A stretch of DNA of 33,501 bases from an uncultured Rhodospirillales bacterium (GTDB lineage Bacteria; Pseudomonadota; Alphaproteobacteria; ATCC43930; CGMCC-115725), in contig CAIUCF010000320.1 in the NCBI GenBank assembly GCA_903897565.1, forward strand, positions 1 through 33,501, read 5' to 3'. Each line of letters opens with the position of its first letter. The stretch's first letter is position 1. Below are positions 4,893 to 29,374 of the stretch, one piece after another. The notes beneath the pieces were generated by a model that worked only from the letters and a program-made list of their open reading frames with translations, was not told the origin of the DNA and searched no databases. Made by a program: the position numbers and the translations under genes.

Positions 4893-4897
4893 GGCGA

Positions 4898-5521: not shown

Positions 5522-5815
5522 GACAGAGCCCTTGACGAGGCGGCAGGTCGGGTGGGACGCCGGCACGAGCCGACCCCTCGCCCGAGATCCGCGAGAGAAA
5601 AGCAACAGCCAGGGCTCCGCCCACAAACGAAACGATCCCCCGGCAACCCGAGGGTTTCATCATGTCACAACGGAAATGTCGAGGGGTCTCGGTTAAAAAT
5701 AGGACCATCCGCCGCATGCTCACGGCCACATTCCGGCGCGACACCGTTGACGCGGCACCGGCTTCGCCGGATCTCTACCCATCCCATTGCCCAGCAAGCC
5801 CGAAGGTCATCAGAA

Positions 5816-6604
5816 ATGCCACCGTCGAACTCGCCAAGGGAGGGCGGCCGTTGCGCCGTCTTCATCCCGGCGCGCCTCGCCTCCACCCGGCTCCCCGACA
5901 AACCCCTGGCGTTGATTCACGGACTCCCGATGATCATCCATGTCTGGCAGCGCGCCGTCGCCGCCGGGATCGGCCCGGTGATCGTCGCCGCCGCGGACCA
6001 AGCGATCGCGGATGCCGTCATCGCGGCCGGCGGCACCTGTGTGTTGACCGATCCGGACCTGCCATCGGGCTCGGATCGCGTCCATGCCGCGCTCGAGGCG
6101 ATTGATCCCGGAGGCGAGATAACCACGATCGTCAACGTCCAGGGTGACCTGCCGACGATCGATCCCACCCTGATCAGCCGCGTGCTCGACCCGCTGCTCG
6201 ACCCAGCGGTCGATATCGCCACCCTGGTCTGCCCGATTACCGAGCCGGACGAACGAACCCGGCCAAGCGTCGTCAAGGCGGCCGTGGCCTGGCAGCCCGG
6301 CAACATCATCGGCCGGGCGCTGTATTTCAGCCGCGCCACGATCCCCTGGGGCGAGGGCGAGTTGCTCCATCATATCGGCCTGTATGCTTATCGTCGCGCC
6401 GCGCTCGCCCGATTCGTCGGACTTCCCGCTGCCGCACTTGAACAACGCGAGAGTCTGGAGCAACTTCGCGCGCTTGAAGCAGGGATGCGGATCGATGTCG
6501 CCCGGGTGACGACGATCCCGCTCGGCGTCGATACGCCGGATGATCTGGAGCGGGCTCGGATCATGTTGGCTGGCACGAGAACGGGGAATAGACAGAATGA
6601 TTGA
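5816..6604 (+). CDS. kdsB: 3-deoxy-manno-octulosonate cytidylyltransferase (CMP-KDO synthetase)
   Basis: '[34 protein letters not shown]' and 'VNVQGDLP' are typical KdsB motifs. ATG at 5816. The 5' 990 nt of ORF 4826..6604 is antisense to cycM. Confidence 0.9.
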
Positions 6605-12142: not shown

Positions 12143-12278
12143 GACCGATACTCCCTGATCGCGACAATGACGTCGCTACAGGACAACGCGCTCATGATCG
12201 CCTCCTTCCACGCGCTCCGCTCGCGCCAGTCATGCGCCTGGATGATGGAACAAAATGACCGCTGGCGACGGGCGTCGA

Positions 12279-12815
12279 TCAGTTCAGACGATAACTGGCG
12301 ACATCCTCGTAGAACGAGCCCGCCTTGGTCAGGTAGCTGCGGACGAGGTGGAAGCGATCGACCGCGAACGGCTCCAGTCGGAACAGATTGTTCGCGGCCA
12401 TGAATTGCAGGATTTCCGTCGGATTCGGCTTCGCACAATAGGCTAGGGTCACGTGCGGCGTGAACCGGCGGTGATCGGGCGGCAGACCGACCCGTGCCAT
12501 CGCCACGCCAAGCTTCTCGAACAGGTGCTGAAGTCCGGGCTCCCGGTCGAGCGTCGCGATCACCGCACGTGGTTTCTCGGCCGGACCGAAATAATCGACA
12601 CCGGCGACACTCAGCGAGAACTGAGGCGCCCGCAGCAACGCAACCTCGGCATCGAGATCGGCGGCGACGACCTCATCGATCTCGCCGATGAAGCGGATCG
12701 TCACATGGAAATTACCGGGATCGACCCAGCGCACGCCATGGAGACCAGAACAGATCGTCGACAAGGCGAGCGCCCGCTCCGGGGGCAAGGGGATGCCGAG
12801 AAACAGTCGCAGCAT
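12279..12815 (-). CDS. thpR: RNA 2',3'-cyclic phosphodiesterase (2H phosphoesterase, LigT/ThpR)
   Basis: Two HxT/S motifs, 'HVTIRF' and 'HVTLAY', at the spacing expected for the 2H superfamily. 178 aa. Confidence 0.85.
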   Translation of the reverse strand: MLRLFLGIPLPPERALALSTICSGLHGVRWVDPGNFHVTIRFIGEIDEVVAADLDAEVALLRAPQFSLSVAGVDYFGPAEKPRAVIATLDREPGLQHLFEKLGVAMARVGLPPDHRRFTPHVTLAYCAKPNPTEILQFMAANNLFRLEPFAVDRFHLVRSYLTKAGSFYEDVASYRLN

Positions 12816-12824
12816 CGCTCGAGG

Positions 12825-13868
12825 TCACGGCGCGGGGTTGGGGATACGCTGATGGATGGCATTGATCTCCTTGATGATCTCCGGCGACAGCGTCAGGTCG
12901 AAGGCGTCGATATCCGCCTTCAACTGCGCCAATGAAGTAGCCCCGATAATCGTCGCCGTGACGAAGGGCTGCGCGGCAATGAAGGCGAGCGCCATCTGCG
13001 CCGGATCGAGGCCATGCTTGCGGGCAAGCTCGACGTAGGCGTCGGCCGCTGTCTGAACCAAGTCGCCGGCGTAGCGGCTGAACCGGGTGAAGACCGTAAT
13101 CCGAGCGCCGGCCGGCCGGGCACCGCGGTAATACTTGCCCGTCAGGAATCCCATGGCCAAGGGGGAATAGGCCAGCAGCCCCAGCCCGTCGAGATGGGCG
13201 AATTCCGCCAACCCGATCTCGAACACCCGATTCAGGAGGTTATAGGCATTCTGGATCGAGGCCGGCTTGGTCGTGCCTCGATGGGCAGCAAGGCCGAGGA
13301 ATTGTGCTGCGCCCCAGGGCGTTTCATTGCTTAGCCCGTAAGACAGGATCTTGCCTTCGCGGATCAGCTCGGCCAAGGCGTCGACCGTCTCCGCGATCGG
13401 GGTCGACTGCTCGTCGGTCGGGGTGTCGAACCCGAGCCTGCCGAAGGTGTTGGTCTGTCGATCCGGCCAATGGAGCTGGTACAGATCGATGCGATCGGTC
13501 CGCAACCGCTTCAGGCTGCCCTCGACGGCGGCGCGGAGATTGGCGCGATCGAAGCGGCTCTTGCCGTTGCGGAGATAGTCCATGCCGCCGCGGCTCGGCC
13601 CGGCGATCTTGGTTGCCAGCACGACCTGGTCACGGGTGCCGGCGGCCGCGAACCACGAGCCGATGTAGCTTTCCGTCAGGGTATAGGTCTTGGCCGTCGG
13701 CGGCACTGGGTACATCTCGGCCGTATCGATGAAATTCACACCGCGGTCGAGCGCGTAGGACAGCTGCTGGTGCGCTTCAGCCTCGGTGTTCTGCTCTCCC
13801 CAAGTCATTGTGCCGAGACAGCACGCGCTGACCTTGAAGCCGGTATCCGCAAGTTGACGATAGTGCAT
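12825..13868 (-). CDS. NADP(H)-dependent aldo/keto reductase (Tas-like)
   Basis: ATG at 13868 gives 'MHYRQLADTGFKVSACCLGTMTWGE...GVNFIDTAEMYP', the classic AKR N-terminus. 347 aa. Confidence 0.85.
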   Translation of the reverse strand: MHYRQLADTGFKVSACCLGTMTWGEQNTEAEAHQQLSYALDRGVNFIDTAEMYPVPPTAKTYTLTESYIGSWFAAAGTRDQVVLATKIAGPSRGGMDYLRNGKSRFDRANLRAAVEGSLKRLRTDRIDLYQLHWPDRQTNTFGRLGFDTPTDEQSTPIAETVDALAELIREGKILSYGLSNETPWGAAQFLGLAAHRGTTKPASIQNAYNLLNRVFEIGLAEFAHLDGLGLLAYSPLAMGFLTGKYYRGARPAGARITVFTRFSRYAGDLVQTAADAYVELARKHGLDPAQMALAFIAAQPFVTATIIGATSLAQLKADIDAFDLTLSPEIIKEINAIHQRIPNPAP

Positions 13869-14062
13869 AGCGCGCTCGTTTCCGTGGAGAGGAAGACCGG
13901 ATTTTCGTATCACATGCCGCACGGCGGCAACTATCGCGTTTTCGCCAGGCCGAGCAGCGCCCGCGACAGCGAGCGCTGTTTCACCGGCGCGGCCCATCGG
14001 GCAAGATGCAGCTCCGGGAGTTGTTCAGGATTTTCATTCATGGCGAAGGGCGGTAGGAGGCG

Positions 14063-15103
14063 ATGACGGATACTGTCCCCCTGACGATCGCCTTCCGCGT
14101 CGACGGCAATCACGCCATGGGGCTCGGCCATCTGATGCGCTGCCGGGCGCTCGCCGAAGCCCTGATCGCGGCGGGTCATCGCTGCAGCTTTCTCGTGGCT
14201 GCGCCAGACCCCGAGGTAACCGCTCCACTCAAGGCGGCTGGCATCGCGATTCTGGCGATCGATCCGGCCCGGGACCGCGACGCCGCGGAAACCCTGACCC
14301 AATGCCGTGCGCTCGGCGCCGCGGCTCTGGTGATCGATGGCTACCATTTCGAGGACGGCTGGCGCCGCGCCGCGCGCGCCGTCGCGACGCCGATCGTGGC
14401 CTTTGCCGATGGCCCGCTACGTCCAGGCCATGCCGACCTGCTGATCGATGCCGCCAGCCCCGAGTCCAGCGATCCGTCTGAACTGTTCGGTCCCGACTAC
14501 GTGCTCCTGCGGCGCGAACTCGTCGAGGCTGCCCGTTTGCCGCTGTTACCGATTGAGCAGCGTCCGACGATCCTGATTACCTTTGGCGGCTCCGATCCGC
14601 TGGCGCTGACCCATCGGGTCACGATAAGCCTGTTCGGCCTCCTGCCGGACACCCAGCTCGCCGTCGTGATCGGGCCAGCGACCGAAGGCGGCGACGCCGT
14701 AGCCCGCAGCCTTCGCGCGCTCGGCCGGCGCGTTACGGTACATCGTGCACCGCCTGCGATGGGAGAGCTGATGCGCCATGCCGGGCTCGCCGTCTCGGCG
14801 GCCGGCGGGACAGTCGGGGAATTGGCAGCCCTCGGCGTTCCGGCGGTGTTGGCCGTCGTCGCCGATAACCAGCTTGCTGGTGCGCAGGCTTGCGTGGCGG
14901 CCGGCTGGTGCTCGGGCGTTGACGCACGCACCGATCCGGCCGCCTCGAACCGGCTCGCCCTCGCTGCGGTTCATCTTTGGCTTCATCCAGAAAAGCGCGC
15001 GCTCTGGGCGGCGCGAGCTCGGTCGGCCGTCGATCCAGGCGGCGCGGATCGGGTCGCCGCGGCGCTACTCGCGGCGATCGCCCGCCGCAAAGCAGGAAAT
15101 TAA
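14063..15103 (+). CDS. pseG: PseG-like UDP-2,4-diacetamido-2,4,6-trideoxy-beta-L-altropyranose hydrolase (GT28-C fold)
   Basis: AGGAGG (14055-14060) lies before the ATG. N-terminus 'IAFRVDGNHAMGLGHLMRCRALAEAL'. Central 'ILITFGGSDPLALT'. C-terminal 'SAAGGTVGELAALGVPAVLAVVADNQ'. These three blocks are the pattern I associate with the PseG family (TIGR03590). Confidence 0.75.
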   Translation: MTDTVPLTIAFRVDGNHAMGLGHLMRCRALAEALIAAGHRCSFLVAAPDPEVTAPLKAAGIAILAIDPARDRDAAETLTQCRALGAAALVIDGYHFEDGWRRAARAVATPIVAFADGPLRPGHADLLIDAASPESSDPSELFGPDYVLLRRELVEAARLPLLPIEQRPTILITFGGSDPLALTHRVTISLFGLLPDTQLAVVIGPATEGGDAVARSLRALGRRVTVHRAPPAMGELMRHAGLAVSAAGGTVGELAALGVPAVLAVVADNQLAGAQACVAAGWCSGVDARTDPAASNRLALAAVHLWLHPEKRALWAARARSAVDPGGADRVAAALLAAIARRKAGN

Positions 15104-15199
15104 CCGAATAAAAACCGTGGCCGTCGGTAGAATGCGGTCCCGAGACGACAGAACTGCTCGGGCAGCGGCAATACCGGCCCAGCCGGTCGAGGAGGCAAG

Positions 15200-16288
15200 G
15201 TGGCGACTATCCAGATCCAGGGCGTTCGTGTCGCCGGCATCGCTGCCGCGGTGCCCGAAGGCACCCGCGGTGTCGCGGATGAAGCCGCAATCTTCGGTGT
15301 CGACGAAATGGAGAAGACCGCCAAGGTGATCGGCGTCCGCTCCCGCCATATCGCGCCGCCGCAGCTCTGTACCTCCGACCTCTGTCACGCCGCCGCCGTT
15401 CGCCTGCTCGACGACCTCGGCTGGGCTCGTGACAGCGTCGACGGCCTCATCTTCGTCAGCCAGTCGCCCGATTACGAGCTGCCGGCCACCGCCTGCACCC
15501 TGCAGGCGCGGCTCGGCCTGCCCGACCGTTGCGCCGCCTTCGACGTCAATCTCGGCTGTTCCGGCTTCGTCTACGGGTTATGGCTCGGCAGCCAGATCGT
15601 CGGTGGCGGCGGCATCAGGCGCTTGCTGCTGCTCGCCGGCGACGTCAGCACGCGCCGCCTCGCTCCCCACGACAAATCGGTGAAGCCCTTGTTCGGAGAC
15701 GCCGGCACGGCGACAGCGATCGAGTTCTCGCCCGGTGCTGCACCCATGGCATTCGAACTCGGCACCGACGGCGCCGGCTTCGCCAGCATCATCATCCCGG
15801 CGAGCGGCTTCCGTCAGCCGCGCACCGATGAAACCAAGGCTCTCTTCGCCGGCGCGGACGGCATCGAGCGCAGTGCCGAGAACATCTATATCAACGGTGC
15901 CGAGGTCTTTAATTTCACGATCAAGCGCATTCCGCCGCTGGTCGAAACCCTGATGGCGAGCGCCGGCAAGACCCGGGAGCAATACGATCACTTCGTCTTT
16001 CATCAGGCCAATGCCTTCATGCTGCAGCATTTGGCCAAGCGCCTCAAAATTCCGACAGAGAAGTTCGTCCTGGCGATGGAGACGGTCGGCAATACCAGCA
16101 GCGCCTCGATCCCGCTCGCCATCACCATGGCGCTGCGCGAATCCCTCGCCGAGCAACCCCGCGAGATGCTCCTCGCCGGTTTCGGAGTCGGCCTCAGCTG
16201 GGCTGCGGCATCGCTGACCCTCGACAGGCCGGTCGTTCCGGCGCTTGTTATCGTTCCCGACGATACTCCCGCGATGGCCGCAGGCTAG
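15200..16288 (+). CDS. 3-oxoacyl-ACP synthase III (FabH-like KAS III)
   Basis: GGAGG (15191-15195) lies before the GTG at 15200. The Cys-His-Asn triad contexts 'NLGCSGFVYGL', 'FVFHQANAFM' and 'VGNTSSASIP' are all present. Confidence 0.85.
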   Translation: MATIQIQGVRVAGIAAAVPEGTRGVADEAAIFGVDEMEKTAKVIGVRSRHIAPPQLCTSDLCHAAAVRLLDDLGWARDSVDGLIFVSQSPDYELPATACTLQARLGLPDRCAAFDVNLGCSGFVYGLWLGSQIVGGGGIRRLLLLAGDVSTRRLAPHDKSVKPLFGDAGTATAIEFSPGAAPMAFELGTDGAGFASIIIPASGFRQPRTDETKALFAGADGIERSAENIYINGAEVFNFTIKRIPPLVETLMASAGKTREQYDHFVFHQANAFMLQHLAKRLKIPTEKFVLAMETVGNTSSASIPLAITMALRESLAEQPREMLLAGFGVGLSWAAASLTLDRPVVPALVIVPDDTPAMAAG

Positions 16289-16290
16289 AG

Positions 16291-17046
16291 ATGTTCAACC
16301 CCCTCGATTTCACCGGCCGACGCTTCCTGGTCACCGGCGCTTCCTCCGGCATCGGCGAGGCGACCGCGATCATGCTCGGTCGCCTCGGCGGCCAGGTCGT
16401 ACTGGCGGGACGCGATCTCGATCGCCTGAACCAGGCGGTGGCCGCGGTCCCCGGGTCCGGCCACAGCGTTGCGTCGTTCGATCTCGGCGATACTGATGCC
16501 ATTCCCGGCTGGGTCGCCAAACTTGCCGCTGACGGGCCGTTCCATGGCCTCGCCCATTGCGCCGGCCTGCAGACCCTGCGCCCGCTGAAAAGCGCCAGTG
16601 CCGCCTTCGTCGAGGAAATGCTGCGCGTCAATGTCGGCGCCGCGCTGGCGATCGGCCGCGCGATTCGCCAGCGCAATGTCGCTGCCAAGCCCGCCAGCCT
16701 GGTGCTGATCTCCTCCACGGCCGGCATGACCGGTCAGCCCGGCAACGTCGTCTACAATGCGACCAAGGGCGCGATCATTGCCGCGGTCAAGGGCATGGCC
16801 CTCGAACTGGTCCGCGACGACATCCGCGTCAATGCCGTGGCCCCTGCCCTGGTGCGGACACCGATGTCCGAGAAATCGATGAAGATCTGGTCGCCTGAGC
16901 AATTGCAGGCGGTCCTCGCGATCCACCCGATGGGCTTCGGCACCGCCGACGACGTCGCCAACGCGATTGTCTTTCTCCTGAGCGACATGGCGCGCTGGAT
17001 CACCGGAACAACGGTCGTGGTCGATGGCGGATACACGGCCCAATAA
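16291..17046 (+). CDS. SDR family oxidoreductase (FabG-like 3-ketoacyl reductase)
   Basis: The start is 2 nt after the KAS III stop. 'VTGASSGIGEA' (TGxxxGxG) and 'SSTAG...YNATKGA' (Ser-Tyr-Lys). Confidence 0.85.
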   Translation: MFNPLDFTGRRFLVTGASSGIGEATAIMLGRLGGQVVLAGRDLDRLNQAVAAVPGSGHSVASFDLGDTDAIPGWVAKLAADGPFHGLAHCAGLQTLRPLKSASAAFVEEMLRVNVGAALAIGRAIRQRNVAAKPASLVLISSTAGMTGQPGNVVYNATKGAIIAAVKGMALELVRDDIRVNAVAPALVRTPMSEKSMKIWSPEQLQAVLAIHPMGFGTADDVANAIVFLLSDMARWITGTTVVVDGGYTAQ

Positions 17047-18175
17047 CGCCTCCACGCTGGCGGCCAACCGCCTGGGTCCGGGTGACTACACTGATCCCGC
17101 GATCCTTGCGGCCGAGCGCGCGCACATCTTTCGCAGACATTGGCATTTCGTCGGCCTCGATCGCGACCTCGCCGAGCCCGAGTCCTGGTTTCTGACCAAG
17201 GTCGCCGGAACCGAGATCATCATCCAGCGCGTTGCCGGGGATGGGTTGCGCGCGTTCGTCAATGTCTGCCCGCACCGCTACAATGCCCTCGTCAACGCCC
17301 CGAACGGCCGCGGCCGGCTGCGTTGCGGCTACCATCTCTGGTCGTTCGACGACAACGGCTTGGCTGCTCAGGTCCCCCTGCGCGCCGGCGTCGCGTTGGA
17401 GGCGTGTCAGACCGCCGCGCTGTCGCTGCGCCGTTGGTCGGTCGAGCGCTGTGGCGCGCTCATCTTCGTCGCCGAGCAGCCGGAGCGGCCGCTCGCAGCC
17501 TTCCTCGGACCGCTCGGCGCTGAGCTGGCGACGCTCTCGCGGGGACTCGGCACCGAGGTCCTGAGATTCTCCCAGGACATCGCCGCGAACTGGAAGGTGA
17601 TCCTGCAGAACACGGTCGAGTTCGATCATGCCTTCGGCGTTCACCCGGAAACCTTCGCTGCGATGGTCGAGCGACCGCTCCATCTTGTCCCTCACGATGC
17701 GGTGGCGCCCCACATCGCCTATCACACGCGGATGAAACCGCGCGATGGGCTGAAGCCGATCGAGCGCCGGATCGAGGACATCTTCGCCCGCTCGGTGATC
17801 CCGCAAGCCGAGGGCTACACCCACGCGACATTGTTCCCTTCCGCGACGATCGGCACGACGGCAAACCGGATCTTCGCCCTCATTCGCTACCAACCACTGG
17901 CGCCGGACCGGACGCACGCCGAGTACCGGCTGTTCATCTCGCAGATCACCGGTCTGACGGCCGTCGAGCAGGCCATTCTCGATCGCGTGGTTCCGGTCGA
18001 TGTCGCCTTCACCCAGCGCCTGCTCGAGGAAGATCGCCAGATCTGCGAGTCGGTGCAACGCGGTCTTAGCAATGCGCCCGCCGATCTTGCTGGCATCCTG
18101 ATGCCGGGAGAGAGTCTGGTCGGGCGATTTCAGCAGTATTGGCTCGACGCCATGCGCGCAGGCGCATTAACTTAA
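17024..18175 (+). CDS. Rieske non-haem iron oxygenase, alpha-subunit type (intact)
   Basis: Rieske ligands 'CPHRYN...CGYHLWSF'. Mononuclear iron region 'NWKVILQNTVEFDHAFGVH' and a distal 'EEDRQICESVQRG'. It overlaps the SDR stop by 23 nt. Confidence 0.85.
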   Translation: MADTRPNNASTLAANRLGPGDYTDPAILAAERAHIFRRHWHFVGLDRDLAEPESWFLTKVAGTEIIIQRVAGDGLRAFVNVCPHRYNALVNAPNGRGRLRCGYHLWSFDDNGLAAQVPLRAGVALEACQTAALSLRRWSVERCGALIFVAEQPERPLAAFLGPLGAELATLSRGLGTEVLRFSQDIAANWKVILQNTVEFDHAFGVHPETFAAMVERPLHLVPHDAVAPHIAYHTRMKPRDGLKPIERRIEDIFARSVIPQAEGYTHATLFPSATIGTTANRIFALIRYQPLAPDRTHAEYRLFISQITGLTAVEQAILDRVVPVDVAFTQRLLEEDRQICESVQRGLSNAPADLAGILMPGESLVGRFQQYWLDAMRAGALT

Positions 18176-18197
18176 CCATGCGCTGCGACGCATTAAC
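18150..18197 (+). repeat. Tandem 22-nt imperfect direct repeat (26-nt period), each unit a short hairpin, spanning the oxygenase stop codon
   Basis: Unit A, 18150-18171, is CCATGCGC-GCAGG-CGCATTAAC. Unit B, 18176-18197, is CCATGCGC-TGCGA-CGCATTAAC. They share 18/22 identity. In unit A, ATGCGC and GCGCAT form a perfect 6-bp stem with a 4-nt loop. Confidence 0.6.
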
Positions 18198-18235
18198 CTT
18201 GAATTCAGAGGCCGCAGGCCATTCTCCCCCTTCAG

Positions 18236-18248
18236 ACAATTAAATTGT
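18236..18248. promoter_or_regulatory. Perfect 6-1-6 palindrome ACAATT-A-AATTGT immediately upstream of the ACP ribosome-binding site (candidate operator)
   Basis: Read directly from the sequence. It is an AT-rich island in about 65% GC DNA. GAGGA (18250-18254) and the ATG at 18259 follow. Confidence 0.3.
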
Positions 18249-18258
18249 TGAGGACGTC

Positions 18259-18492
18259 ATGACACCCACCGAATTCTACGCCGCGCTCGACGAAATGCTC
18301 GAGCTCGACCCCGGCACCATCACCGGAAACGAACGGCTCGAGGATGTCGAGGCGTGGGATTCGCTGGCCGTGATCAGCTTCATCGCACTCGTCGACGAGA
18401 AGTTCGACATCCTGGTCGAGACAGAGAAGCTCGCGGCCGCCGAATCGGTCGGCGATCTCTACGCACTGGCGACCCGCCAGAAGGCCGCCTGA
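18259..18492 (+). CDS. Acyl carrier protein (dedicated, 77 aa)
   Basis: An acidic small protein with the phosphopantetheine attachment context 'EDVEAWDSLAVISFIALVDEKF' (DSL Ser). RBS GAGGA. Confidence 0.8.
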   Translation: MTPTEFYAALDEMLELDPGTITGNERLEDVEAWDSLAVISFIALVDEKFDILVETEKLAAAESVGDLYALATRQKAA

Positions 18493-18511
18493 ACCGTCGC
18501 AGCGGCCACCC

Positions 18512-19327
18512 GTGAGCACCGTGAACCCGGCACGGGTCAAATATCGCCAGATTGAACTCGCCGGCCAGCGCGTCGGCCTCCTCACCGCAGGTCCGCCCGA
18601 GGCCGTGCCGATGCTGTTGCTGCATGGCTTCTCGGGCGACGCCCTGACCTGGCAGTTCAATGTCGGTGCACTCGCCCGCCATCACCGCGTCACCGCGATC
18701 GACCTTCCCGGCCATGGCCTGACCGAAGCGACCGAGCAGATCGGCTATTGGCGTGGCATGGTGGATTGGGTCGCGGAGATCGTGGCGGCCCTCGAACTCC
18801 CGCCAGCGCACCTCGCCGGGCATTCCCTCGGCGCCCGCATCCTGCTCGGCGGCCTGGAGGAGGAAAAGTTGGCCGGGCTCAGCCTCAGCCTGATCTCCTG
18901 CGCCGGCATCTCGCCGAGCTATGATTACGAATTCCTCGATCGGCTCTCGCGAATCGAGACGATGGCCGACGCCGTCGCCTGCGTCCTGCGCCTGCTCGGC
19001 GATGCCCCCGACCAGCCGGAACGTCTCGCCAAGGGCCTGTTCCAGAAACTGACGACCCCCGCCGCCAAGGCAGCCTTGCGTGCCTATCTCGCCAGCAATT
19101 TTGCCGAAGGCCGGCTTCTGCCGGCCGCGCCGGTGCGCTGGGACGCGCTCGCCTGCCCGTTGCAGATCATCTGGGGAGCCGATGACGGCATCGTACAACT
19201 TCCGCCACCCGATTGGCTCCCGGCCGGAATCGCCGTGCATCTGCTGGATCGCGTCGGACATCTTCCGCACATGACGGCTGCCGATCGCGTCAATGCGCTG
19301 TTGGTCGCCCATGCCGGAGCGACGTGA
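18512..19327 (+). CDS. Alpha/beta-fold hydrolase (possible acyltransferase or thioesterase)
   Basis: 'MLLLHGFSGDALTW', 'AIDLPGHG', the nucleophile elbow 'GHSLGA', and a C-terminal 'DRVGHLPHM' (catalytic His region). Confidence 0.8.
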   Translation: MSTVNPARVKYRQIELAGQRVGLLTAGPPEAVPMLLLHGFSGDALTWQFNVGALARHHRVTAIDLPGHGLTEATEQIGYWRGMVDWVAEIVAALELPPAHLAGHSLGARILLGGLEEEKLAGLSLSLISCAGISPSYDYEFLDRLSRIETMADAVACVLRLLGDAPDQPERLAKGLFQKLTTPAAKAALRAYLASNFAEGRLLPAAPVRWDALACPLQIIWGADDGIVQLPPPDWLPAGIAVHLLDRVGHLPHMTAADRVNALLVAHAGAT

Positions 19328-19905
19328 TGAGCGCGACCAATCTGCGCAGCGGCGTCCTCAGCTACCCCGCGCTCGGCGAAGAGCACGCCGCATTGGTCCT
19401 CGGCTGGCGAACGCGCCCGGATATCACCCAATACCTGCTGACGGATATCGTCCCGGATCTCGACGCCCAGAAGCGCTGGCTGGCGGCTTGCGTCGAGAGA
19501 CCGGATTTCCTCCATCGCCTGATCGCGGTCGACGACGTTCCGGTCGGCTATTGCTCGATCACGACCACGGATGCGAGCGCCGGGATAGGCGCGATCGGGG
19601 TCTATCTTGCCGAAAAGACGTCGCGCAGCGGCATCGCCAGCTTCAATTTCATCCATATCCTCAATCACGCGCTACTGACGCTCGGATTGTTCAAGATCGT
19701 CAACCACATCATGAGCGCCAATGAACGCGTGATCCGCAGCCAGGTCATGAACGGCTACCGTCCGGTCGGGATATTGCGCCAGCACGCTGTCAAACATGGC
19801 GAGCGCCACGATCTCCACGTCTTCGAGCAACTGCGCGAGGATTGGCTGAAGCATCGCGAGAAGTTCCGAGACTATCGCGATCTCGACGGCATCGAACGGC
19901 GCTAG
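19327..19905 (+). CDS. pseH: PseH-like GNAT N-acyltransferase (UDP-4-amino-4,6-dideoxy-AltNAc N-acetyltransferase family)
   Basis: The ATG overlaps the hydrolase stop (GTGATGA). 192 aa. Layout: 'LGEEHAALVLGWRTRPDITQYL', 'KRWLAAC', 'HRLIAVDDVPVGYCSIT..IGAIGVYL', 'IVNHIMSANERVIRSQVMNGYRPVGILRQH...HDLHVFEQLREDW'. This matches the PseH family pattern (TIGR03585) as I remember it. Confidence 0.65.
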   Translation: MSATNLRSGVLSYPALGEEHAALVLGWRTRPDITQYLLTDIVPDLDAQKRWLAACVERPDFLHRLIAVDDVPVGYCSITTTDASAGIGAIGVYLAEKTSRSGIASFNFIHILNHALLTLGLFKIVNHIMSANERVIRSQVMNGYRPVGILRQHAVKHGERHDLHVFEQLREDWLKHREKFRDYRDLDGIERR

Positions 19906-19908
19906 ACC

Positions 19909-20859
19909 ATGGCCGACCTCACGGAAACGCCAGCGCTCGGGCATGAGGCTTACTGGAAGGCCGAGAGTTTCGCCGCGGAGATGGGTGCCGTGTTCGCGCG
20001 GTCATGGCTTTTCGCCGGCCTCACGACCGCGTTTCCACCGGGGACGCATCCGCTGGACCTCGCCGGCATGGCGCTCACGATCGATGCCACGCCTACCGGT
20101 TTCTCGGCACGCTTTGGCGAGGCCGTGTCGGATGTCGATCGATGCGGCCAGCTGCTGTTCGTGCGTCCGGTCTCCGGGGGCCCCGGCCTTGCAGAGTTCC
20201 TCGCACCTTACGCGACGCTCCTGGAGACGATTTCGCAGGCCCTCGTCGAGGTCGACCATGTCGCGCGCATGGTGGCGCCCGTGAACTGGAAGGCCCTGGT
20301 CGAGAACACGCTCGACGATTGCCACGCGGCCACGGTTCACACCAAGAGCCTGCAGCCGGCGATGGATCCGGCCTGGCTGGCGCGCTACCGGCCCGACCGC
20401 CACGGCGCCCACAGCATGATGGGCAATGATCTCGGCGCGGCGGACGCGACGTTCTGGTCGCGTCTCGCCGAACGGCTGCCGCTCGCCCGCCACCATCACG
20501 ACGCCGTCTACAAGCACCTGTTCATCTTTCCGAATCTCTACGTCGCCACGTTTTTCGGGGCGATGGTGATCCTCCACCGGATCGATCCGATCACAGCGGA
20601 ATCGGCGGCGCTCGAATTGCTCACCTGCCTGCCCGTCACCCGCGCCATGAGCAATCGCGAGCGGGCGCTGCACGCGGCGGTGCTGCGCGATCTCGTCGCC
20701 AAGGCTGAGATCGTGGTCGAAGAGGACATGGCGGTCTGCCGCCTCGCCCAGCGCGGCCACCATTTCGCCGTCCACCCCGGCATCCTGGGCACGCGGGAGT
20801 GCCGAGTCGGCGATTTTCAGCGGACCCTGGTCCAGGCCATCGCCGAAGCCGTGGGATAG
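19909..20859 (+). CDS. Rieske-oxygenase alpha-subunit homologue retaining the catalytic (mononuclear Fe) domain but lacking the Rieske cluster ligands
   Basis: The N-terminal helix 'YWKAESFAAEMGAVFARSWLFAG' is present. No CxH...CxxH occurs anywhere, and the segment between 'ALTIDATPTG' and 'CGQLLFVRP' is too short. The catalytic motif 'NWKALVENTLDDCHAATVH' and distal 'EEDMAVCRLAQRG' are present. Confidence 0.75.
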   Translation: MADLTETPALGHEAYWKAESFAAEMGAVFARSWLFAGLTTAFPPGTHPLDLAGMALTIDATPTGFSARFGEAVSDVDRCGQLLFVRPVSGGPGLAEFLAPYATLLETISQALVEVDHVARMVAPVNWKALVENTLDDCHAATVHTKSLQPAMDPAWLARYRPDRHGAHSMMGNDLGAADATFWSRLAERLPLARHHHDAVYKHLFIFPNLYVATFFGAMVILHRIDPITAESAALELLTCLPVTRAMSNRERALHAAVLRDLVAKAEIVVEEDMAVCRLAQRGHHFAVHPGILGTRECRVGDFQRTLVQAIAEAVG

Positions 20860-20866
20860 CGCCGCG

Positions 20867-21502
20867 CTATTCGGGCGACGGCGCGATGAAATCGAACCGC
20901 GCCACCTCAATTCCCCGATTACCCGCGGGGAGCGTGATCTCGACGCTGCTCGCGCGATGATCGCCGTGAATGCAGAGATTGCGGAAGCGGATCTCCGCGA
21001 CGCCCTCCAGCTCCGGCCCGTCACCGGTTCCGAGCAGCCGGTGTCCGAGAGCCGGCGTTACGGCGAGAGCCTCGATGCGGCTCCCCAAGGCTTCGATCAG
21101 TGGCTCCGTACCCGGATCCACCCTCACGAATACCAGGCGGCCGAGGATCTCGACCTCGACCCGACGCAGCGCCAACCGCTTTCGGGCCGTGGCATCGAGC
21201 CCGAAGAGCAGGTCATTGTCGGGAATACCGATTGGTATGCCATGGGCATTGTAGACCCAGCCGTGATAAGGGCAACGCAACGGACCGACGCCGCAGCCGG
21301 CCTCCCGCATCTGGGTACCGCGATGCGAGCACACGTTCCAGTATCCGCCCAGGGCGCCGCGAAAATTCTGCACCGTGATCGAGAGCTCCGGCAGGTCGAC
21401 GGTCACATGCTGGCCGTCGACCGCGAGCCGGTCGCGAATGGTCAGGCAGAACCAACCGGTTCGCCATGATACTGCTGTCAACGGATCACCAATCCTCGCC
21501 AT
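20867..21502 (-). CDS. Stand-alone Rieske [2Fe-2S] domain protein (oxygenase alpha subunit lacking the catalytic domain)
   Basis: 'CSHRGTQM...CPYHGWVY' Rieske ligands, then 'GRLVFVRV'. Only about 90 further residues follow, with no NWK..D..H....H motif. 211 aa. Convergent with the previous gene, with a 7-nt gap. Confidence 0.75.
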   Translation of the reverse strand: MARIGDPLTAVSWRTGWFCLTIRDRLAVDGQHVTVDLPELSITVQNFRGALGGYWNVCSHRGTQMREAGCGVGPLRCPYHGWVYNAHGIPIGIPDNDLLFGLDATARKRLALRRVEVEILGRLVFVRVDPGTEPLIEALGSRIEALAVTPALGHRLLGTGDGPELEGVAEIRFRNLCIHGDHRASSVEITLPAGNRGIEVARFDFIAPSPE

Positions 21503-21565
21503 GATTTATCCGAAAATTAACTCTCGCGCGGGACACTCGACGTCGTTAGATCCTGACTTGCGATC

Positions 21566-23533
21566 TTGACCGCGTTTCTCGTCCCAAAGCCAGGTATCAT
21601 CAAGACTGTGACGACAAGCAACAGCGCCGAAACCTCCGCCACGTTCCTCGCAGCGCGAATTCTGGCCGCGCTCAATGAGGGCGCGCTGGAACAAGCCATC
21701 GGCGATCTTCAGAAGCTGCAGCAGGACGGCAGTGCCCCGGCCCTGACTCTGCATCTGGTCGGGCTCGCGTCGTTGCGCGTCAATGAGGTCGGCAAGGCCG
21801 TCGCAGCGTTCGAGGAGGCCCATCGCCTCGATCCCCAGCTCAACGAACCCGTCGAGGTTCTCGCGATCCTCCACGCCAAGCTCGGCCGTCTAACGGACGG
21901 GCTGTACTACGGCAAGCTCTCGATCGCGGCGCAGAATCGCTTCCCCGTCGCCGGCATGATCCCGGATTGGCTCGGCAAGTTCGAGGAATCCTTCTTCAAC
22001 ATGCAGGATCGCCCGCTGCTGGCCCAGGCCGAGCGGGCAATGGCGTCGGGCCATTATCTGGAAGCGATCCGGTGTTTCCGTCAGGCGGCCGAGATCGACG
22101 GCAATGCCGCGGAGACGTGGCGCGGCCTCGCGACAGCGCATCGCCTCGCCGGGCAACCCTTCGAGAGCGTCGTCGCCCTGCGCAAGATCGAGGCGATTGC
22201 CGCGCCGGAGGCCCGCGACTATGCCGCCCTCGGTGAGGCGCTGCAGATGCTGGGCCGCTGGGACGAAGCGATCGAGTGCCATGAGCACGCCGTAACGCTG
22301 GCGCCCCGGGATGAGCAATTCGGCTGGGCGGCACTGCGCTGCCGGCTGCGGCAACCGGCGACCGAGGAGGCGATCGCCGCGGCCACCCAAATCTGGGCCG
22401 CCGCCAATCGTCGAGAGCCGATCTTCGACGCGCCACCCTGGCCGGACGTCACTGCGCTGGAGCGCCGCCCGGTCCGCCTCGGTATCTATACCGGGAGTTG
22501 GCTCGACCCTGTTGCGCTCGCCCTGGTCGTGCCTCTGCTGCTTGCGCTGCCCCCGGACCGGATCGAGCTTTGTGTCTATTCCGACGGACCGGCAGACACC
22601 GAACTCGCCCGCCGGCTGCGCGGCCACGCCAAGCGATGGGAAAGCCTGACCGATCTCGACGACGAAACCGCCGCCTTCACCCTGGGCAACGAGGAACTCG
22701 ATGTCCTGATCGACCTCGATGGCCCCTTGCGGCGGACATGGCGGCCGCTGCTGTTCCAGTACCGCCCGCATCCGATCGCGTTGAGCCTACTTGACCTGCC
22801 CGTGACGGCCATGGCTGCCGGCTATTCCCACGCCCTGACCGATGCTCCGATCGGCTTGGCGGACCGCCAGCAGGTCGGCATTCCCGGGATCGCGACCAAT
22901 CTTCCAAGCGATCTTTCCCTCCTGATCCAGCCCGTACCTGATCGGGCCCTGACCGAGGGCGGTATCGTTTTCGGCACGCTCGTGCCCTATGGCCGGATTT
23001 CGATGACCGAGACGGTGCTCTGGGCCGATCTGCTGGCACAGGTGCCGGGCTCGACGCTCGCGCTTGAGCCCGATCGTCTCGGAGGCGAGCCGGGGCTCGC
23101 CGAAATTCTCGATCGCTTCAACCGCATCGGACTGGCCGACCGGGTCCGGGTCGAGCCGCGCGACCAGGTCGCGACCGCCTATCTCGAGCGCGTCGATCTC
23201 CTGCTCGACGCCCCCGGATCGCCGCACTACGAAGAGGCCGTGATGGCGATCGCCGCCGGTATGCCGGTCATCACGGTTCCCGGAACGACGCCGGCAACCC
23301 GGGCACTGGGCAATTGGCTCGGGTCGACGCTCGGCCTCGGTGAACTCATCGCCCATGATGGCGAAAGCTATGTCGCGCTGGCGCGCAACGCCGTCTCGAG
23401 CTCGGCAGGGCCTGCCCTGCGGCAACGGCTTCGCGATGCTGTGGACCGCGAGCGCAAGACCGGCGCGCCGACGCGTGCACGACTGTTCGATGCCGCCCTT
23501 CGCGAACTCCTTGCCCGGGTGAGGGCAGAATAA
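21566..23533 (+). CDS. TPR-repeat protein fused to a GT41-like (SPINDLY/O-GlcNAc-transferase family) glycosyltransferase domain
   Basis: The N-terminal ~270 aa are TPR-like helical repeats (e.g. 'GKAVAAFEEAHRLDPQLNEP', 'YLEAIRCFRQAAEIDGNAAETW', 'WDEAIECHEHAVTLAPRD'). The C-terminus follows the COG3914 pattern: 'VRLGIYTGSW', 'LDVLIDLDGPLRRTWRPLLFQYRPHPIAL', 'IVFGTL', 'VDLLLDAPGSPHYEEAVMAIAAGMPVITVPGTTPATRALGNWL..LGLGELIA'. The start is TTG 21566 or GTG 21608. Confidence 0.75.
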   Translation: MTAFLVPKPGIIKTVTTSNSAETSATFLAARILAALNEGALEQAIGDLQKLQQDGSAPALTLHLVGLASLRVNEVGKAVAAFEEAHRLDPQLNEPVEVLAILHAKLGRLTDGLYYGKLSIAAQNRFPVAGMIPDWLGKFEESFFNMQDRPLLAQAERAMASGHYLEAIRCFRQAAEIDGNAAETWRGLATAHRLAGQPFESVVALRKIEAIAAPEARDYAALGEALQMLGRWDEAIECHEHAVTLAPRDEQFGWAALRCRLRQPATEEAIAAATQIWAAANRREPIFDAPPWPDVTALERRPVRLGIYTGSWLDPVALALVVPLLLALPPDRIELCVYSDGPADTELARRLRGHAKRWESLTDLDDETAAFTLGNEELDVLIDLDGPLRRTWRPLLFQYRPHPIALSLLDLPVTAMAAGYSHALTDAPIGLADRQQVGIPGIATNLPSDLSLLIQPVPDRALTEGGIVFGTLVPYGRISMTETVLWADLLAQVPGSTLALEPDRLGGEPGLAEILDRFNRIGLADRVRVEPRDQVATAYLERVDLLLDAPGSPHYEEAVMAIAAGMPVITVPGTTPATRALGNWLGSTLGLGELIAHDGESYVALARNAVSSSAGPALRQRLRDAVDRERKTGAPTRARLFDAALRELLARVRAE

Positions 23534-23539
23534 CGGCGG

Positions 23540-23758
23540 TTAGTTCTCGACGAGCCGGAACAGGCGGGAATCGCTGAGCGCGTCGGCGCCCACTGTCTTA
23601 CTCAGGCTGCCGTCATTGCTGCAGATCAGCCGGACATGGAGGAGGCCGTCGATGGCGACGAACATGTCACGCACCACCCAGGACGGGGACGGTCGGGAGA
23701 AATGCATGCTCAGCGGTGGCTGGTAGGTCTGGCCGAGCGCGATCTCTTGTTTCGCCAT
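23540..23758 (-). CDS. Hypothetical small protein (72 aa)
   Basis: GGGAG lies 9 nt upstream of the ATG at 23758. GC-rich third codon positions throughout. No motif recognised. Confidence 0.55.
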   Translation of the reverse strand: MAKQEIALGQTYQPPLSMHFSRPSPSWVVRDMFVAIDGLLHVRLICSNDGSLSKTVGADALSDSRLFRLVEN

Positions 23759-23815
23759 GGCGGTGTCGCTCCCGATCGGGTCGTCGAAATTAGCGCAGGC
23801 GCAGCAATTGTTCGG

Positions 23816-26762: not shown

Positions 26763-27788
26763 ATGACCTGGGGAAAACAAAAATCACTGCTGGTCGTCCT
26801 CCTGGTGCTCGGTTTCGCCGCGCTCGGCCATGCCTTCGTGCCCCTGCCCCGACCGCCGGTGACTGTCTACGGCTCGCATATCATCGCAAACGTGGAGATG
26901 CCGAGCCTCGCGCTCGGCCACCCGATACCGGTCACCCTCTATATCCCCGATAAGGCGGCGATGGCTTCCGGCCCGCTACCCGTCATCATCCTCCTCCATG
27001 GAGTCAACAGCCAGGGCATGGATTGGGTAACGCGCGGCCAGATCCAGGCGACCCTCGACCATCTGATCGCCGGCCGCCGGATGCCGCCGGTGATCGTCGC
27101 GATGCCCTCGACCGGCACCAGCTGGTACGTCGATTCAGCGGATATCGGCGGCCCGGGAAACTACGAGACGGCGATCGGCAGTGAATTGCCGGCCTGGCTG
27201 TCCGCGCATTGGAACGCGCGTTCCGATCGCGACGGCAAGGCCATCGCCGGATATTCGATGGGTGCTTTCGGCGCCCTTCATATCGCGTTCAAACACCCCG
27301 AGGATTGGGCAGCGGCGGGCTCGCTGAGCGGGACGTTCCTGACAGTGGTCGGCAACCAGGCCGCCATCCCGGCGCTCAACCGCCGCCTGATCGCTGGCGC
27401 ATTCGGGACTCCTTTCAATCGTGACCGCCTCCTCAAGGCAAGCCCAGTCACACTCGCGCGGGCGCTGCGGCCGCGCGAGCGCCCCGCTCCCGCGGTCTTC
27501 ATCGGCTGCGGCAAGCGCGATCAGCTGCATCTGAGCGCCGAGACCAACGGCATGATCGACGAGCTCCATCAGCTCGGGATCCCGCTCGCTACCGACATCA
27601 TCGACGGCGGGCATGACTGGAAGACCTGGAAGCAGCTGCTCCCCGATGCGCTGGTCTTCATCGGCGACCATTTCGACCAGACGACGCGGTCGGATCGTAC
27701 CGTCGCGGCGTCGACGACGACGAATACCGAGGCTCCGGTGAGCCCCGGACAGTCCGCCTCGCTCCCCCGACCGCACATCATTCCTTGA
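26763..27788 (+). CDS. Secreted esterase (esterase D / PF00756-like alpha/beta hydrolase)
   Basis: ATG at 26763 gives the signal peptide 'MTWGKQKSLLVVLLVLGFAALGHA'. 'PVIILLHG', nucleophile elbow 'GYSMGAFGA', and a distal 'GGHDW'. The upstream part of ORF 26436.. overlaps the PLD gene start region. Confidence 0.75.
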   Translation: MTWGKQKSLLVVLLVLGFAALGHAFVPLPRPPVTVYGSHIIANVEMPSLALGHPIPVTLYIPDKAAMASGPLPVIILLHGVNSQGMDWVTRGQIQATLDHLIAGRRMPPVIVAMPSTGTSWYVDSADIGGPGNYETAIGSELPAWLSAHWNARSDRDGKAIAGYSMGAFGALHIAFKHPEDWAAAGSLSGTFLTVVGNQAAIPALNRRLIAGAFGTPFNRDRLLKASPVTLARALRPRERPAPAVFIGCGKRDQLHLSAETNGMIDELHQLGIPLATDIIDGGHDWKTWKQLLPDALVFIGDHFDQTTRSDRTVAASTTTNTEAPVSPGQSASLPRPHIIP

Positions 27789-29374
27789 CCTACGCCCTCC
27801 GGCACCGGCCGGGCGCCCGCGCGCCGGGAACAGGCGACATCACCGTCGCGCTGGGCTTTTTCATCCTCGCCCTCGCCACACGCTATGTCAGCTTCCACCG
27901 CAGCGTCATCGACTGGGACGAGAGCCTGTATTTTCTGATGGCCGAGGCCTGGCGCGCCGGCCATCTGCCCTATACGACTATCTGCGACAACAAGCCGATC
28001 GGCATCTACGTGATCTTCGCCACCTTCCAGTCATTGTTCGGCGACAGTGTCGGATCGATGAGGCTCGCGGCGGTGACGGCGGTTTCGGCTACCGCGTTCG
28101 GACTCTACCGGCTCTATCTGGCCATCATGGCCGCCGGGGGCGAGCCGCCTGACGGCGGAAACCTGCGGGCGCGGCTGCCCGCCGTCGTCGCCGGCGTCCT
28201 GTATCTGCTTGCGTCGACCCGGGACGGCGGGATGGCGGCGAATACCGAACTCTTCATCGCCCCTCTGATCTGCGGCGGGCTGCTCTTCGCGCTGTCGTCG
28301 CGGAAAGGCCCCGCGCCGGTCTTCGTCTCGGGGCTGCTGTTCGGCCTCGCCTTCATCGTCAAATATGTCGCGATCTTCGAGTTCGCGGCGCCGCTGCTCG
28401 CGCTGACGATGCTCCGCACGCGCGCGCCAGCGACGCCAGGGCCGACGCGCGCCATCGGGTTGTTCGCGGCCGGGGCAGCGATCCCGCTCGCGGCGTGCTT
28501 CGCCCTCTATGCCTGCGCCGGGCGTGCCGCAATCTTCGTCTCGGCAAGCCTGGTCGCCAACACGCGCCGGCTCGACATGCCGTTTTCCGTCGATCTCGCG
28601 CATCGCGCGTTCCACGACCACGCCGTGGCCTTCCTCCTTCCCTATTGCGCCTTCGTGTTGCTCCTCGTGCCGCTGATCCGCGGTATCGCGGCGGCCCAGG
28701 ATGCCGAGGCGCGACGACGCGACGGCGTCATCGCCGCGGTCTTGCTGCTCTGGGTCGCCGGCGCTCTGGTCGGCACGGCTTCCGCCAAGTCGTTCTATCC
28801 GCATTATTTCCTGCAACCCTTGCCGGCGCTGTGTCTCACCGCGGTCTGGATTGCCGGGCGCGCCCTGCCGTTTCGTGGCGTTACCGGCTTCGCCATGACT
28901 CTCGCCCTGTTGGTTCAACCGGTGTCGGGCGCGCACGACGCGATTGCCGAGACCTGGGATCCGATCAGACTCGACCAACCCGGGATCGGCTGGTTGCGCG
29001 ACGAACCAGCCCGCATCGCCGCCGATCTGCGGCCGGCTCTGGCCGGCCTCTCCGGAACTCCGCTCTATGTGGTCGACTATCAGCCAATCCTCTACAGCCT
29101 GACCGCGGTGCCGGCGCCGACCCGGTTCGCGTTCCCGTCGTTCATCATCGGCCGTTTCCTGTCACGCGTCGTCGCGATCGATGCCCCGGCCGAATTCGCC
29201 GAAATCGCGGCGAAGCGGCCCCATTTCATCATCCGCGATCGCGTCCGCCACCCGAGCGCCGAGCGCGACAATCTGGAGGTCTATGTTGCCCTCGCTGCCT
29301 TGCTCGACACTCAGTATCGCATCTGGAAGACCTACCCCACCGCGGTCGTCTACCGGCGGCGCGACGATCCGTGA
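27785..29374 (+). CDS. GT-C fold membrane glycosyltransferase (ArnT/PMT_2-like), copy 1
   Basis: A polytopic membrane protein. First-loop motif 'DWDESLYFLMAEAWRAGHLPYTTICDNKPIGIYVIF'. The TTG start at 27785 overlaps the esterase stop (TTGA). Confidence 0.75.
   Translation: MTYALRHRPGARAPGTGDITVALGFFILALATRYVSFHRSVIDWDESLYFLMAEAWRAGHLPYTTICDNKPIGIYVIFATFQSLFGDSVGSMRLAAVTAVSATAFGLYRLYLAIMAAGGEPPDGGNLRARLPAVVAGVLYLLASTRDGGMAANTELFIAPLICGGLLFALSSRKGPAPVFVSGLLFGLAFIVKYVAIFEFAAPLLALTMLRTRAPATPGPTRAIGLFAAGAAIPLAACFALYACAGRAAIFVSASLVANTRRLDMPFSVDLAHRAFHDHAVAFLLPYCAFVLLLVPLIRGIAAAQDAEARRRDGVIAAVLLLWVAGALVGTASAKSFYPHYFLQPLPALCLTAVWIAGRALPFRGVTGFAMTLALLVQPVSGAHDAIAETWDPIRLDQPGIGWLRDEPARIAADLRPALAGLSGTPLYVVDYQPILYSLTAVPAPTRFAFPSFIIGRFLSRVVAIDAPAEFAEIAAKRPHFIIRDRVRHPSAERDNLEVYVALAALLDTQYRIWKTYPTAVVYRRRDDP

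Follow-up and report, generated by a model that had tools for sequence, protein, structure and literature searches.

The stretch of DNA analysed here, referred to as the window, is a 33,501-nt stretch from an uncultured Rhodospirillales bacterium (contig CAIUCF010000320.1, positions 1 to 33,501; G+C content ~65%), and its element of interest is a set of acyl-building genes at 15200-19327 on the forward strand. The original prediction described this interval as a minimal factory for acyl groups on an acyl carrier protein (ACP), comprising a condensing enzyme, a reductase, an ACP and a hydrolase. Family matching with Pfam and NCBIfam models over the ~30 plausible genes of the window gives five tightly packed genes in this interval, not four, and the cassette is not free-standing but is the middle of a nine-gene block encoded on one strand. 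The block opens with a PseG-type UDP-sugar hydrolase (14063-15103; TIGR03590, 159.5 bits against a cut-off of 153.55). The cassette itself follows: a 362-residue 3-ketoacyl-ACP synthase III (KAS III)-like condensing enzyme of a FabH paralogue subfamily (15200-16288; PF08545, PF08541), a classical short-chain dehydrogenase/reductase (SDR) that is a putative 3-ketoacyl-ACP reductase (16291-17046; PF13561, PF00106), a Rieske non-haem-iron oxygenase alpha subunit (17024-18175; PF00355, PF00848), a dedicated ACP of 77 residues with a WDSL serine (18259-18492; PF00550), and an alpha/beta hydrolase related by homology to the AcoC catalytic domain (18512-19327; PRK14875). Downstream lie a PseH-like member of the GCN5-related N-acetyltransferases (GNATs) that is a candidate N-acyltransferase (19327-19905; PF13302), an oxygenase catalytic domain without the Rieske cluster core (19909-20859; PF00848 68 bits, no PF00355 match) and, last, a tetratricopeptide repeat (TPR) plus GT41-like protein resembling the protein O-glycosyltransferase FlmG (21566-23533). 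A stand-alone Rieske-domain gene (20867-21502; PF00355) sits on the reverse strand before this last gene, convergent with that of the Rieske-less oxygenase. From PseG to the Rieske-less oxygenase the genes overlap or are separated by 2 to 97 nt; the start of the Rieske gene overlaps the SDR stop and the start of the GNAT gene overlaps the hydrolase stop.

The four genes originally listed are borne out by family matches and catalytic motifs, including an intact KAS III triad, while the inventory proved incomplete in that the Rieske oxygenase gene within the interval had gone unmentioned. The absences claimed for the cassette also hold, as none of the ~30 plausible window genes matches the FabZ/FabA, enoyl reductase, KAS I/II, FabD (malonyl transacylase) or phosphopantetheinyl transferase families. 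With neither a dehydratase nor an enoyl reductase in the operon, the gene content permits the single condensation and single reduction that had been proposed. A scan of 13800-23800 for promoters and terminators returned counts no better than those from shuffled sequence.

The genes surrounding the cassette point to pseudaminic acid (Pse) and flagellin glycosylation. The GNAT family profile matches the solved PseH structures 4ri1 (E = 1.9e-5, residues 8-171) and 4xpk (E = 2.9e-5), with the longest coverage of all matches. An AlphaFold model of the protein (pLDDT 86.5) retrieves mostly SpeG-type GNATs in a fold search, with Helicobacter pylori PseH (4ri1) at ranks 2-5, and also matches FdhC (5ktc), which was solved with CoA and a 3-hydroxybutanoyl-amino sugar; the model is consistent with a PseH identity but is not decisive. 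The TPR/GT41-like protein (655 aa) has TPR_1 and TPR_2 matches at residues 150-250 and a PF13844 match at 461-632. By the published description this predicted arrangement, an N-terminal TPR region followed by a C-terminal GT-B-type domain, is the architecture of FlmG, the flagellin pseudaminyl-transferase of Caulobacter, where flmH adjoins flmG (PMC7591256).

We collected homologous loci by scanning one genome per species, which yielded 59 loci, and counted co-occurrence over the 49 loci of at least 12 kb. The nearest relatives are found in Rhodospirillales metagenome-assembled genomes and in Aliidongia, at 71-90% identity. Two of these loci, L060 and L061 (84% identical), have exactly the same gene order, from PseG through the GNAT to the Rieske-less oxygenase, the Rieske-only gene on the minus strand and the TPR/GT41 gene, and a PseG homologue upstream of KAS III is shared by L003, L060 and L061. 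Six Asticcacaulis loci carry the ACP, KAS III, Rieske oxygenase, SDR, hydrolase, a second KAS III paralogue, PseG and GNAT in shuffled order, and in five of the six these genes lie near homologues of PseI, PseF or a DegT-type (PseC-like) aminotransferase; the GNATs that come after PseG in the Asticcacaulis pse clusters are 41-48% identical to that of the window. In L062 an SDR, GNAT, ACP and hydrolase accompany NeuB, and L063 encodes SDR, KAS III, Rieske, SDR, ACP, PseF, NeuB, a PseG-like gene and the hydrolase. In Niveispirillum (L064), NeuB, PseF, ACP, hydrolase, an AMP-dependent ligase, SDR and KAS III stand beside FlbT, flagellin and a TPR protein. The linkage to pseudaminic acid and flagellin genes thus survives shuffling across two alphaproteobacterial orders. 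Together these data, PseG, the GNAT and the FlmG-like protein in the window and NeuB, PseF and flagellin in its relatives, lend good support to the earlier proposal that the acyl product serves N-acylation of a nonulosonic sugar. In L060 the FlmG-like gene is followed on the minus strand (18312-20049) by a pair of SDR and MaoC/hot-dog dehydratase genes, a TetR gene and an AMP-dependent ligase; this set is missing at the corresponding place in the window and so is probably outside the module.

The core of the cassette extends well beyond this group. Within 8 kb of the KAS III gene an SDR is encoded in 46 of the 49 loci and an ACP in 44. A PglD-like left-handed beta-helix (LbH) protein is present in 22 of the 49 loci, and a GNAT in 11 loci. 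The combination of KAS III, ACP and SDR beside amino-sugar genes recurs in ~45 loci from many phyla; those outside the Alphaproteobacteria belong to Opitutales (Verrucomicrobia), Bacteroidota, Bacillota, SAR11, Vibrio, Campylobacter and Helicobacteraceae relatives, and others. In these loci the genes most often found alongside the core encode AMP-dependent ligases accompanied by a second carrier protein, DegT-type aminotransferases, PglD-like LbH acyltransferases, 4,6-dehydratases and PglC-like sugar transferases, a neighbourhood that fits a general role of the core in amino-sugar N-acylation.

The KAS III gene starts at a GTG codon with a GGAGG ribosome-binding site 6 nt upstream, and its product matches PF08545 (55.1 bits) and PF08541 (94.3 bits), each above cut-off. 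We aligned 60 family members with Escherichia coli FabH, using a FabH sequence whose length (317 aa) and numbered residue identities matched. Cys112, His244 and Asn274 (E. coli FabH numbering) are present in the window protein and invariant across the 60 members. By contrast with FabH, the CoA/ACP docking residues are replaced family-wide, W32 by Lys or Arg and R249 by Phe, Tyr or Met, so that the docking mode may differ; Asn210 and Gly306 are also systematically replaced. The protein scores below the cut-offs of housekeeping FabH models (PRK09352, 225.6 versus 249 bits; TIGR00747, 189.1 versus 292.1; PRK12880, 193.4 versus 436). A sequence search of the PDB found 4efi (296 bits) and 3gwa as best matches, with E. 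coli FabH at 133 bits; the first two are named simply '3-oxoacyl-ACP synthase' and give no functional lead. The protein is a putative decarboxylative condensing enzyme that would act on malonyl-ACP and an acyl-CoA primer.

Some natural-product KAS III-like enzymes are instead acyltransferases, and the window protein had been suggested as such a transferase, moving an acyl group from CoA or ACP to the sugar. The loss of the CoA-stacking W32 and the ACP-docking R249, the scores below the curated FabH cut-offs and the frequent presence in relatives of a second KAS III paralogue beside PseG, itself possibly a transferase, would agree with such a role. Characterised KAS III-like acyltransferases, however, usually show an altered triad, whereas here the Cys-His-Asn triad is invariant, including the Asn needed for decarboxylation; the near-constant ACP and ketoreductase-type SDR partners would be unneeded by a simple transferase, and in most loci an LbH protein or a GNAT is available as a distinct N-acyltransferase candidate. 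On these grounds the transferase role is disfavoured, and we regard it as very improbable. The second paralogue is shorter (334-368 aa) with an intact triad and is found in L006, L007, L011, L016 (13778-14800), L017, L020, L001, L062 and L063, where it often adjoins the hydrolase or PseG and is sometimes joined by a second SDR or an AMP-dependent ligase; it could have a second extension or a transferase role.

For a condensing KAS III the chain length is a further question, and the 3-hydroxybutyryl product originally proposed from an acetyl primer is a guess, with the FabH docking residues replaced in the whole family. Another primer, or repeated rounds, would give a longer or branched hydroxyacyl group. 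Consistent with this, pocket-lining positions differ from those aligned in E. coli FabH (F87 to Leu, L142 to Ser, L189 and L205 to Ile), and the relatives with two KAS III paralogues, sometimes with two SDRs or with an AMP-dependent ligase and a second ACP, suggest that the module serves varied acyl groups. The window, on the other hand, has a single KAS III, a single operon SDR, no AMP-dependent ligase and no second ACP, and most simply its product would be a CoA primer extended once. A product other than the C4 group is therefore a serious minority possibility, though we favour the single extension.

The two partners of the condensing enzyme are consistent with this chemistry. The SDR has the TGASSGIG (TGxxxGIG) motif and, from its alignment to 1pr9, the N-S-Y-K tetrad and an Arg after beta2, but falls below the FabG model cut-offs (TIGR01830, 125.8 versus 297.75 bits; PRK12826.1-2, 127.5 versus 222 bits). 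The ACP carries the WDSL motif and matches PF00550 at 23.0 bits against a cut-off of 20.8, and is a putative phosphopantetheinylated carrier; its scores lie far below the cut-offs of the NCBIfam ACP models, AcpP included, which argues for a dedicated carrier. It is 76% identical to its homologue in L001 and 45-48% identical to those of Asticcacaulis.

The hydrolase had been offered three roles, malonate loading, release of the acid or acyl transfer, and can now be narrowed to a homologue of the AcoC acyltransferase domain. PRK14875 (AcoC) is by far its best family, at 177.7 bits over model positions 108-370 against 65.6 bits for the next; this is below the full-length cut-off of 307 bits, and the lipoyl domain PF00364 has no match in the protein. 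The GHSLGA elbow is present, and the HG, GHSxG, Asp and His residues are invariant across its relatives and AcoC-type proteins. In a database search the protein falls in a small clade of lipoyl-less proteins of ~270 aa whose next relatives are AcoC-type proteins with lipoyl and hydrolase domains; it is 28-33% identical to eight aligned proteins combining PF00364 with the hydrolase domain, and its nearest named relatives are AcoC proteins, annotated as thioester acetyltransferases. An AlphaFold model was obtained with pLDDT 90.9. In the 49 loci the hydrolase and the PglD-like LbH protein never occur together (13 with the hydrolase only, 22 with LbH only, 14 with neither; Fisher p = 1.4e-4). Of 14 loci with the hydrolase, 13 carry NeuB, PseG or the GNAT. 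The 3-hydroxyacyl-ACP is a direct substrate of LpxD and similar LbH enzymes, while GNATs normally use CoA thioesters. We infer that the hydrolase would move the acyl group from ACP to CoA for use by the GNAT.

The same serine chemistry of AcoC-type enzymes, thioester to thiol, runs in either direction, and the hydrolase might instead load malonate onto the ACP as a FabD surrogate, or, as a thioesterase, release the hydroxy acid so that it can be re-activated. A loader would have a place in the window, where FabD is missing; for a thioesterase, the fold matches include esterases and a polyketide synthase thioesterase, and L006, L007, L011 and L064 carry an AMP-dependent ligase able to re-activate the free acid. 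Against a loader, however, ~30 loci have the KAS III-ACP-SDR core with no such hydrolase, and malonyl loading is thus generally independent of it; against a thioesterase, there is no AMP-dependent ligase in the operon of the window or of L060. The occurrence of the hydrolase exactly where LbH is absent and GNAT or Pse genes are present also speaks against both roles. We consider these two roles, taken together, unlikely relative to transfer from ACP to CoA.

In the Rieske protein (17024-18175) the cluster ligands are CPH...CGYH and the iron site follows the pattern NxxExxHxxxxH...D, NTVEFDHAFGVH...EED; its nearest solved structures are alpha3-type oxygenases such as CntA. A homologue occupies the same position in L003 (partial, at a contig end), L060 and L061, and one lies beside KAS III in Asticcacaulis, L063 and L044. 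The downstream Rieske-less oxygenase aligns to residues 17-45 and 140-377 of this protein, with approximately residues 46-139 missing, and keeps the iron site, ENTLDDCHAATVH...EED; the convergent Rieske-only protein aligns to residues 36-162 and has CSH...CPYH ligands. The pair looks like a split Rieske oxygenase. A recent rearrangement was considered as its origin and rejected, since L060 and L061 retain the two halves as well. With one Rieske oxygenase embedded in the cassette and a second, split oxygenase after the GNAT, the claim that the pathway stalls at a 3-hydroxyacyl thioester is doubtful, and the pathway probably ends in an acyl group that is oxidised beyond the simple 3-hydroxyacyl state.

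An alternative is that the substrate of one or both oxygenases is the sugar, or its N-acyl group once this has been transferred; an N-acetyl or N-acyl group might for instance be hydroxylated, by analogy with CMP-Neu5Ac hydroxylase. The nearest solved relatives of the Rieske protein (CntA, stachydrine demethylase and GbcA-like enzymes) use small polar substrates, the second oxygenase comes after the GNAT and not after the ACP genes, and in L064 a Rieske gene stands apart from the acyl genes, near SIS/CBS and isochorismatase-like genes. Yet the gene is wedged among KAS III, SDR and ACP in the window, L060, Asticcacaulis, L063 and L044, and this position, with its overlap of the SDR stop, is more typical of enzymes of the same sub-pathway. 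Action on the sugar therefore seems to us improbable, and hydroxylation of the carrier-bound chain the better reading.

Two further observations concern the oxygenases of relatives. In L001 (Aliidongia) the Rieske position between SDR and ACP is filled by opposite-strand ORFs (12214-13720), of which, by eye, two small ones are a toxin-antitoxin pair and another is an EAL-domain gene; the oxygenase therefore appears dispensable for the module. In Asticcacaulis a gene of the PhyH-like (phytanoyl-CoA dioxygenase) family is divergent from the ACP-KAS III genes, at L006, L011, L016 (8706-9629, minus strand), L017 and L020, and is absent from the window.

These data allow us to propose, with confidence somewhat above even, that the cassette is the acyl-building part of a pseudaminic-acid flagellin-glycosylation operon, the whole mechanism being predicted from gene content and homology. 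In this model the dedicated ACP would be malonylated and the KAS III would perform one condensation of malonyl-ACP with a short acyl primer, probably acetyl-CoA. NADPH-dependent reduction of the 3-keto group by the SDR would then yield a short 3-hydroxyacyl-ACP; the operon encodes neither a dehydratase nor an enoyl reductase nor an elongating KAS. The embedded Rieske oxygenase would probably add a further hydroxyl to the chain, and the downstream split oxygenase may add another. The AcoC-like hydrolase would pass the acyl group from the pantetheine thiol of the ACP to CoA, or directly onward, and the PseH-like GNAT would place it on the 4-amino group of UDP-4-amino-4,6-dideoxy-L-AltNAc, the later N7 of Pse. 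PseG, encoded here, with PseI and PseF, encoded elsewhere, would complete CMP-Pse5Ac7(hydroxyacyl), and the FlmG-like TPR glycosyltransferase would transfer the sugar to flagellin. The C4 chain length, the exact role of the hydrolase and the substrate of the oxygenases are each less certain than this overall model. That all of its distinctive parts are correct at once, namely a de novo N-acyl line of KAS III, ACP and ketoreductase, Rieske hydroxylation on the carrier, and an AcoC-derived acyl-ACP:CoA transacylase bridging to a CoA-dependent PseH-like GNAT, is a long shot. If it were so, the Rieske step would parallel in bacteria, on another scaffold, what CMP-Neu5Ac hydroxylase does to sialic acid, and the KAS III-ACP-ketoreductase core would be the general source, so far overlooked, of the hydroxyacyl groups that decorate amino sugars across many phyla.

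Several results weigh against this model. The SDR is no nearer to FabG than to xylulose or carbonyl reductases, which score equally (~100 bits) in its PDB matches. The fold search with the hydrolase gave only generic matches (lipases, C-C hydrolases, esterases and a polyketide synthase thioesterase, with similar scores) that do not separate a transferase from a hydrolase. All hydrolase-bearing loci are alphaproteobacterial, so the exclusivity with LbH coincides with phylogeny and may be non-functional, and two such loci, L001 and L063, have no GNAT within 8-9 kb. The Rieske gene was counted absent from L001, L062 and L064 and is therefore accessory; no ferredoxin or reductase partner for it was recognised among the annotated window genes, and its substrate could be the sugar instead of the acyl chain. 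The GNAT falls under the cut-off of the PseH model (TIGR03585, 56.4 versus 93.1 bits), though this is its best NCBIfam match, and its fold matches are generic GNATs. Finally, pseB, pseC, pseI, pseF and flagellin genes are all missing from the window.

The last two points raise the possibility that the cassette is a mere neighbour of the pseudaminic-acid genes, belonging for example to a small lipid or secondary-metabolite pathway. The absence of pseB, pseC, pseI and pseF from the window is not in itself a problem, as the pse genes of Caulobacter are likewise scattered in the genome (PMC7591256). The weak resemblance of the GNAT to PseH has to be set against a linkage with PseG, NeuB, PseF and GNAT genes that is kept across two alphaproteobacterial orders despite shuffled order, the tight spacing on one strand and the association of the core with amino-sugar genes in other phyla. 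An unrelated pathway is thus the least probable of the explanations considered, and a role in pseudaminic-acid modification is preferred.

Elsewhere in the window, a KdsB match covers residues 343-583 of a 592-aa ORF (4826-6604, plus strand), the N-terminal part of which overlaps a 310-aa ORF with no family match (4122-5054, plus strand); either the kdsB start was mis-set by the mechanical ORF call or an upstream gene is unannotated. At 935-2416 (plus strand) a Peptidase_C13/caspase-like protein, a weak match to the EACC1-associated caspase family, lies beside a leucyl aminopeptidase and is unrelated to the cassette. The region 27785-31125 encodes a 529-aa ORF with no family match followed by a PMT_2/ArnT-like glycosyltransferase, and over 28-31 kb the AT skew is strongly negative (-0.19 to -0.33), unlike the rest of the window.

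How flagella, capsules and O-antigens are recognised is shaped by the N-acyl groups that pseudaminic and legionaminic acids carry, 3-hydroxybutyryl among them, and to our knowledge the supply of N-acyl groups for nonulosonic acids has been little studied. If correct, our model would account for a gene set that recurs, unannotated, in the glycan loci of Alphaproteobacteria, Verrucomicrobia (Opitutales), Bacteroidota, Bacillota, SAR11, Vibrio and Campylobacter relatives. It would also give a genomic predictor of sugar decoration, enzymes for modified nonulosonic acids for use in vaccines and probes and, in the AcoC-like hydrolase, a new way to shuttle acyl groups between ACP and CoA. A full-text literature search found no description of a KAS III-ACP-ketoreductase cassette in pse, leg or flagellin-glycosylation loci, nor of a Rieske partner or AcoC-like hydrolase in pse loci. 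Two candidate precedents were rejected: sfmABCDE of Shewanella encodes a PseI-like protein, a thiamine pyrophosphate enzyme, an SDR, a methyltransferase and an ATP-grasp protein but neither FabH nor an ACP, and a Campylobacter paper mentions housekeeping fabH only.

Among known systems, the initiation of type II fatty-acid synthesis by FabH, FabG and AcpP shares with the cassette a Cys-His-Asn KAS III, a classical SDR and a carrier with a DSL serine. In contrast to that trio, all three window proteins score below the curated housekeeping cut-offs and the KAS III lacks W32 and R249; the window has no FabZ/FabA, FabI, FabB/F or FabD, and the genes lie in a pse operon with an oxygenase and a hydrolase. 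AcoC, an E2-like protein of acetoin dehydrogenase, has a homologous hydrolase domain and is annotated for acyl transfer from thiol to thiol, whereas the window protein has no lipoyl domain and is encoded beside an ACP instead of E1 subunits. LbH acyltransferases of the LpxD/LpxA type, which use (R)-3-hydroxyacyl-ACP, are a precedent for direct transfer of a 3-hydroxyacyl group from the carrier to the amine of a sugar, and the 22 loci with a PglD-like LbH protein beside the core belong to other phyla. The window encodes the GNAT and the AcoC-like hydrolase in place of an LbH protein. FdhC, solved with CoA and 3-[(R)-3-hydroxybutanoylamino]-3,6-dideoxy-D-galactose (5ktc), is a GNAT that N-acylates an amino sugar from a CoA donor, and PseH (4ri1, 4xpk) matches the window GNAT best over the full length, in sequence as in structure; the window protein is just 13-18% identical to these proteins. 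We know of no dedicated KAS III and ACP supply for either FdhC or PseH.

The closest parallels lie in flagellin glycosylation itself. The FlmG/FlmH system of Caulobacter crescentus has, as here, a TPR-containing glycosyltransferase gene beside a PseH-like acetyltransferase gene, and the Caulobacter pathway as described comprises six enzymes with no KAS III, ACP, SDR, Rieske or hydrolase genes (PMC7591256). In the group II flagellin islands of Aeromonas, a fatty-acid-synthesis-like set consisting of an ACP, a 3-oxoacyl-ACP reductase, an AMP-dependent synthetase, LuxE and LuxC lies between pse genes; these genes have no assigned function, and the authors suggest a lipo-sugar (PMC7874193). The Aeromonas islands differ from the window in using AMP-ligase and LuxCE-type chemistry and in lacking a KAS III, a Rieske oxygenase and an AcoC-like hydrolase, but share with it carrier-protein-based acyl genes placed inside a flagellin glycosylation locus.

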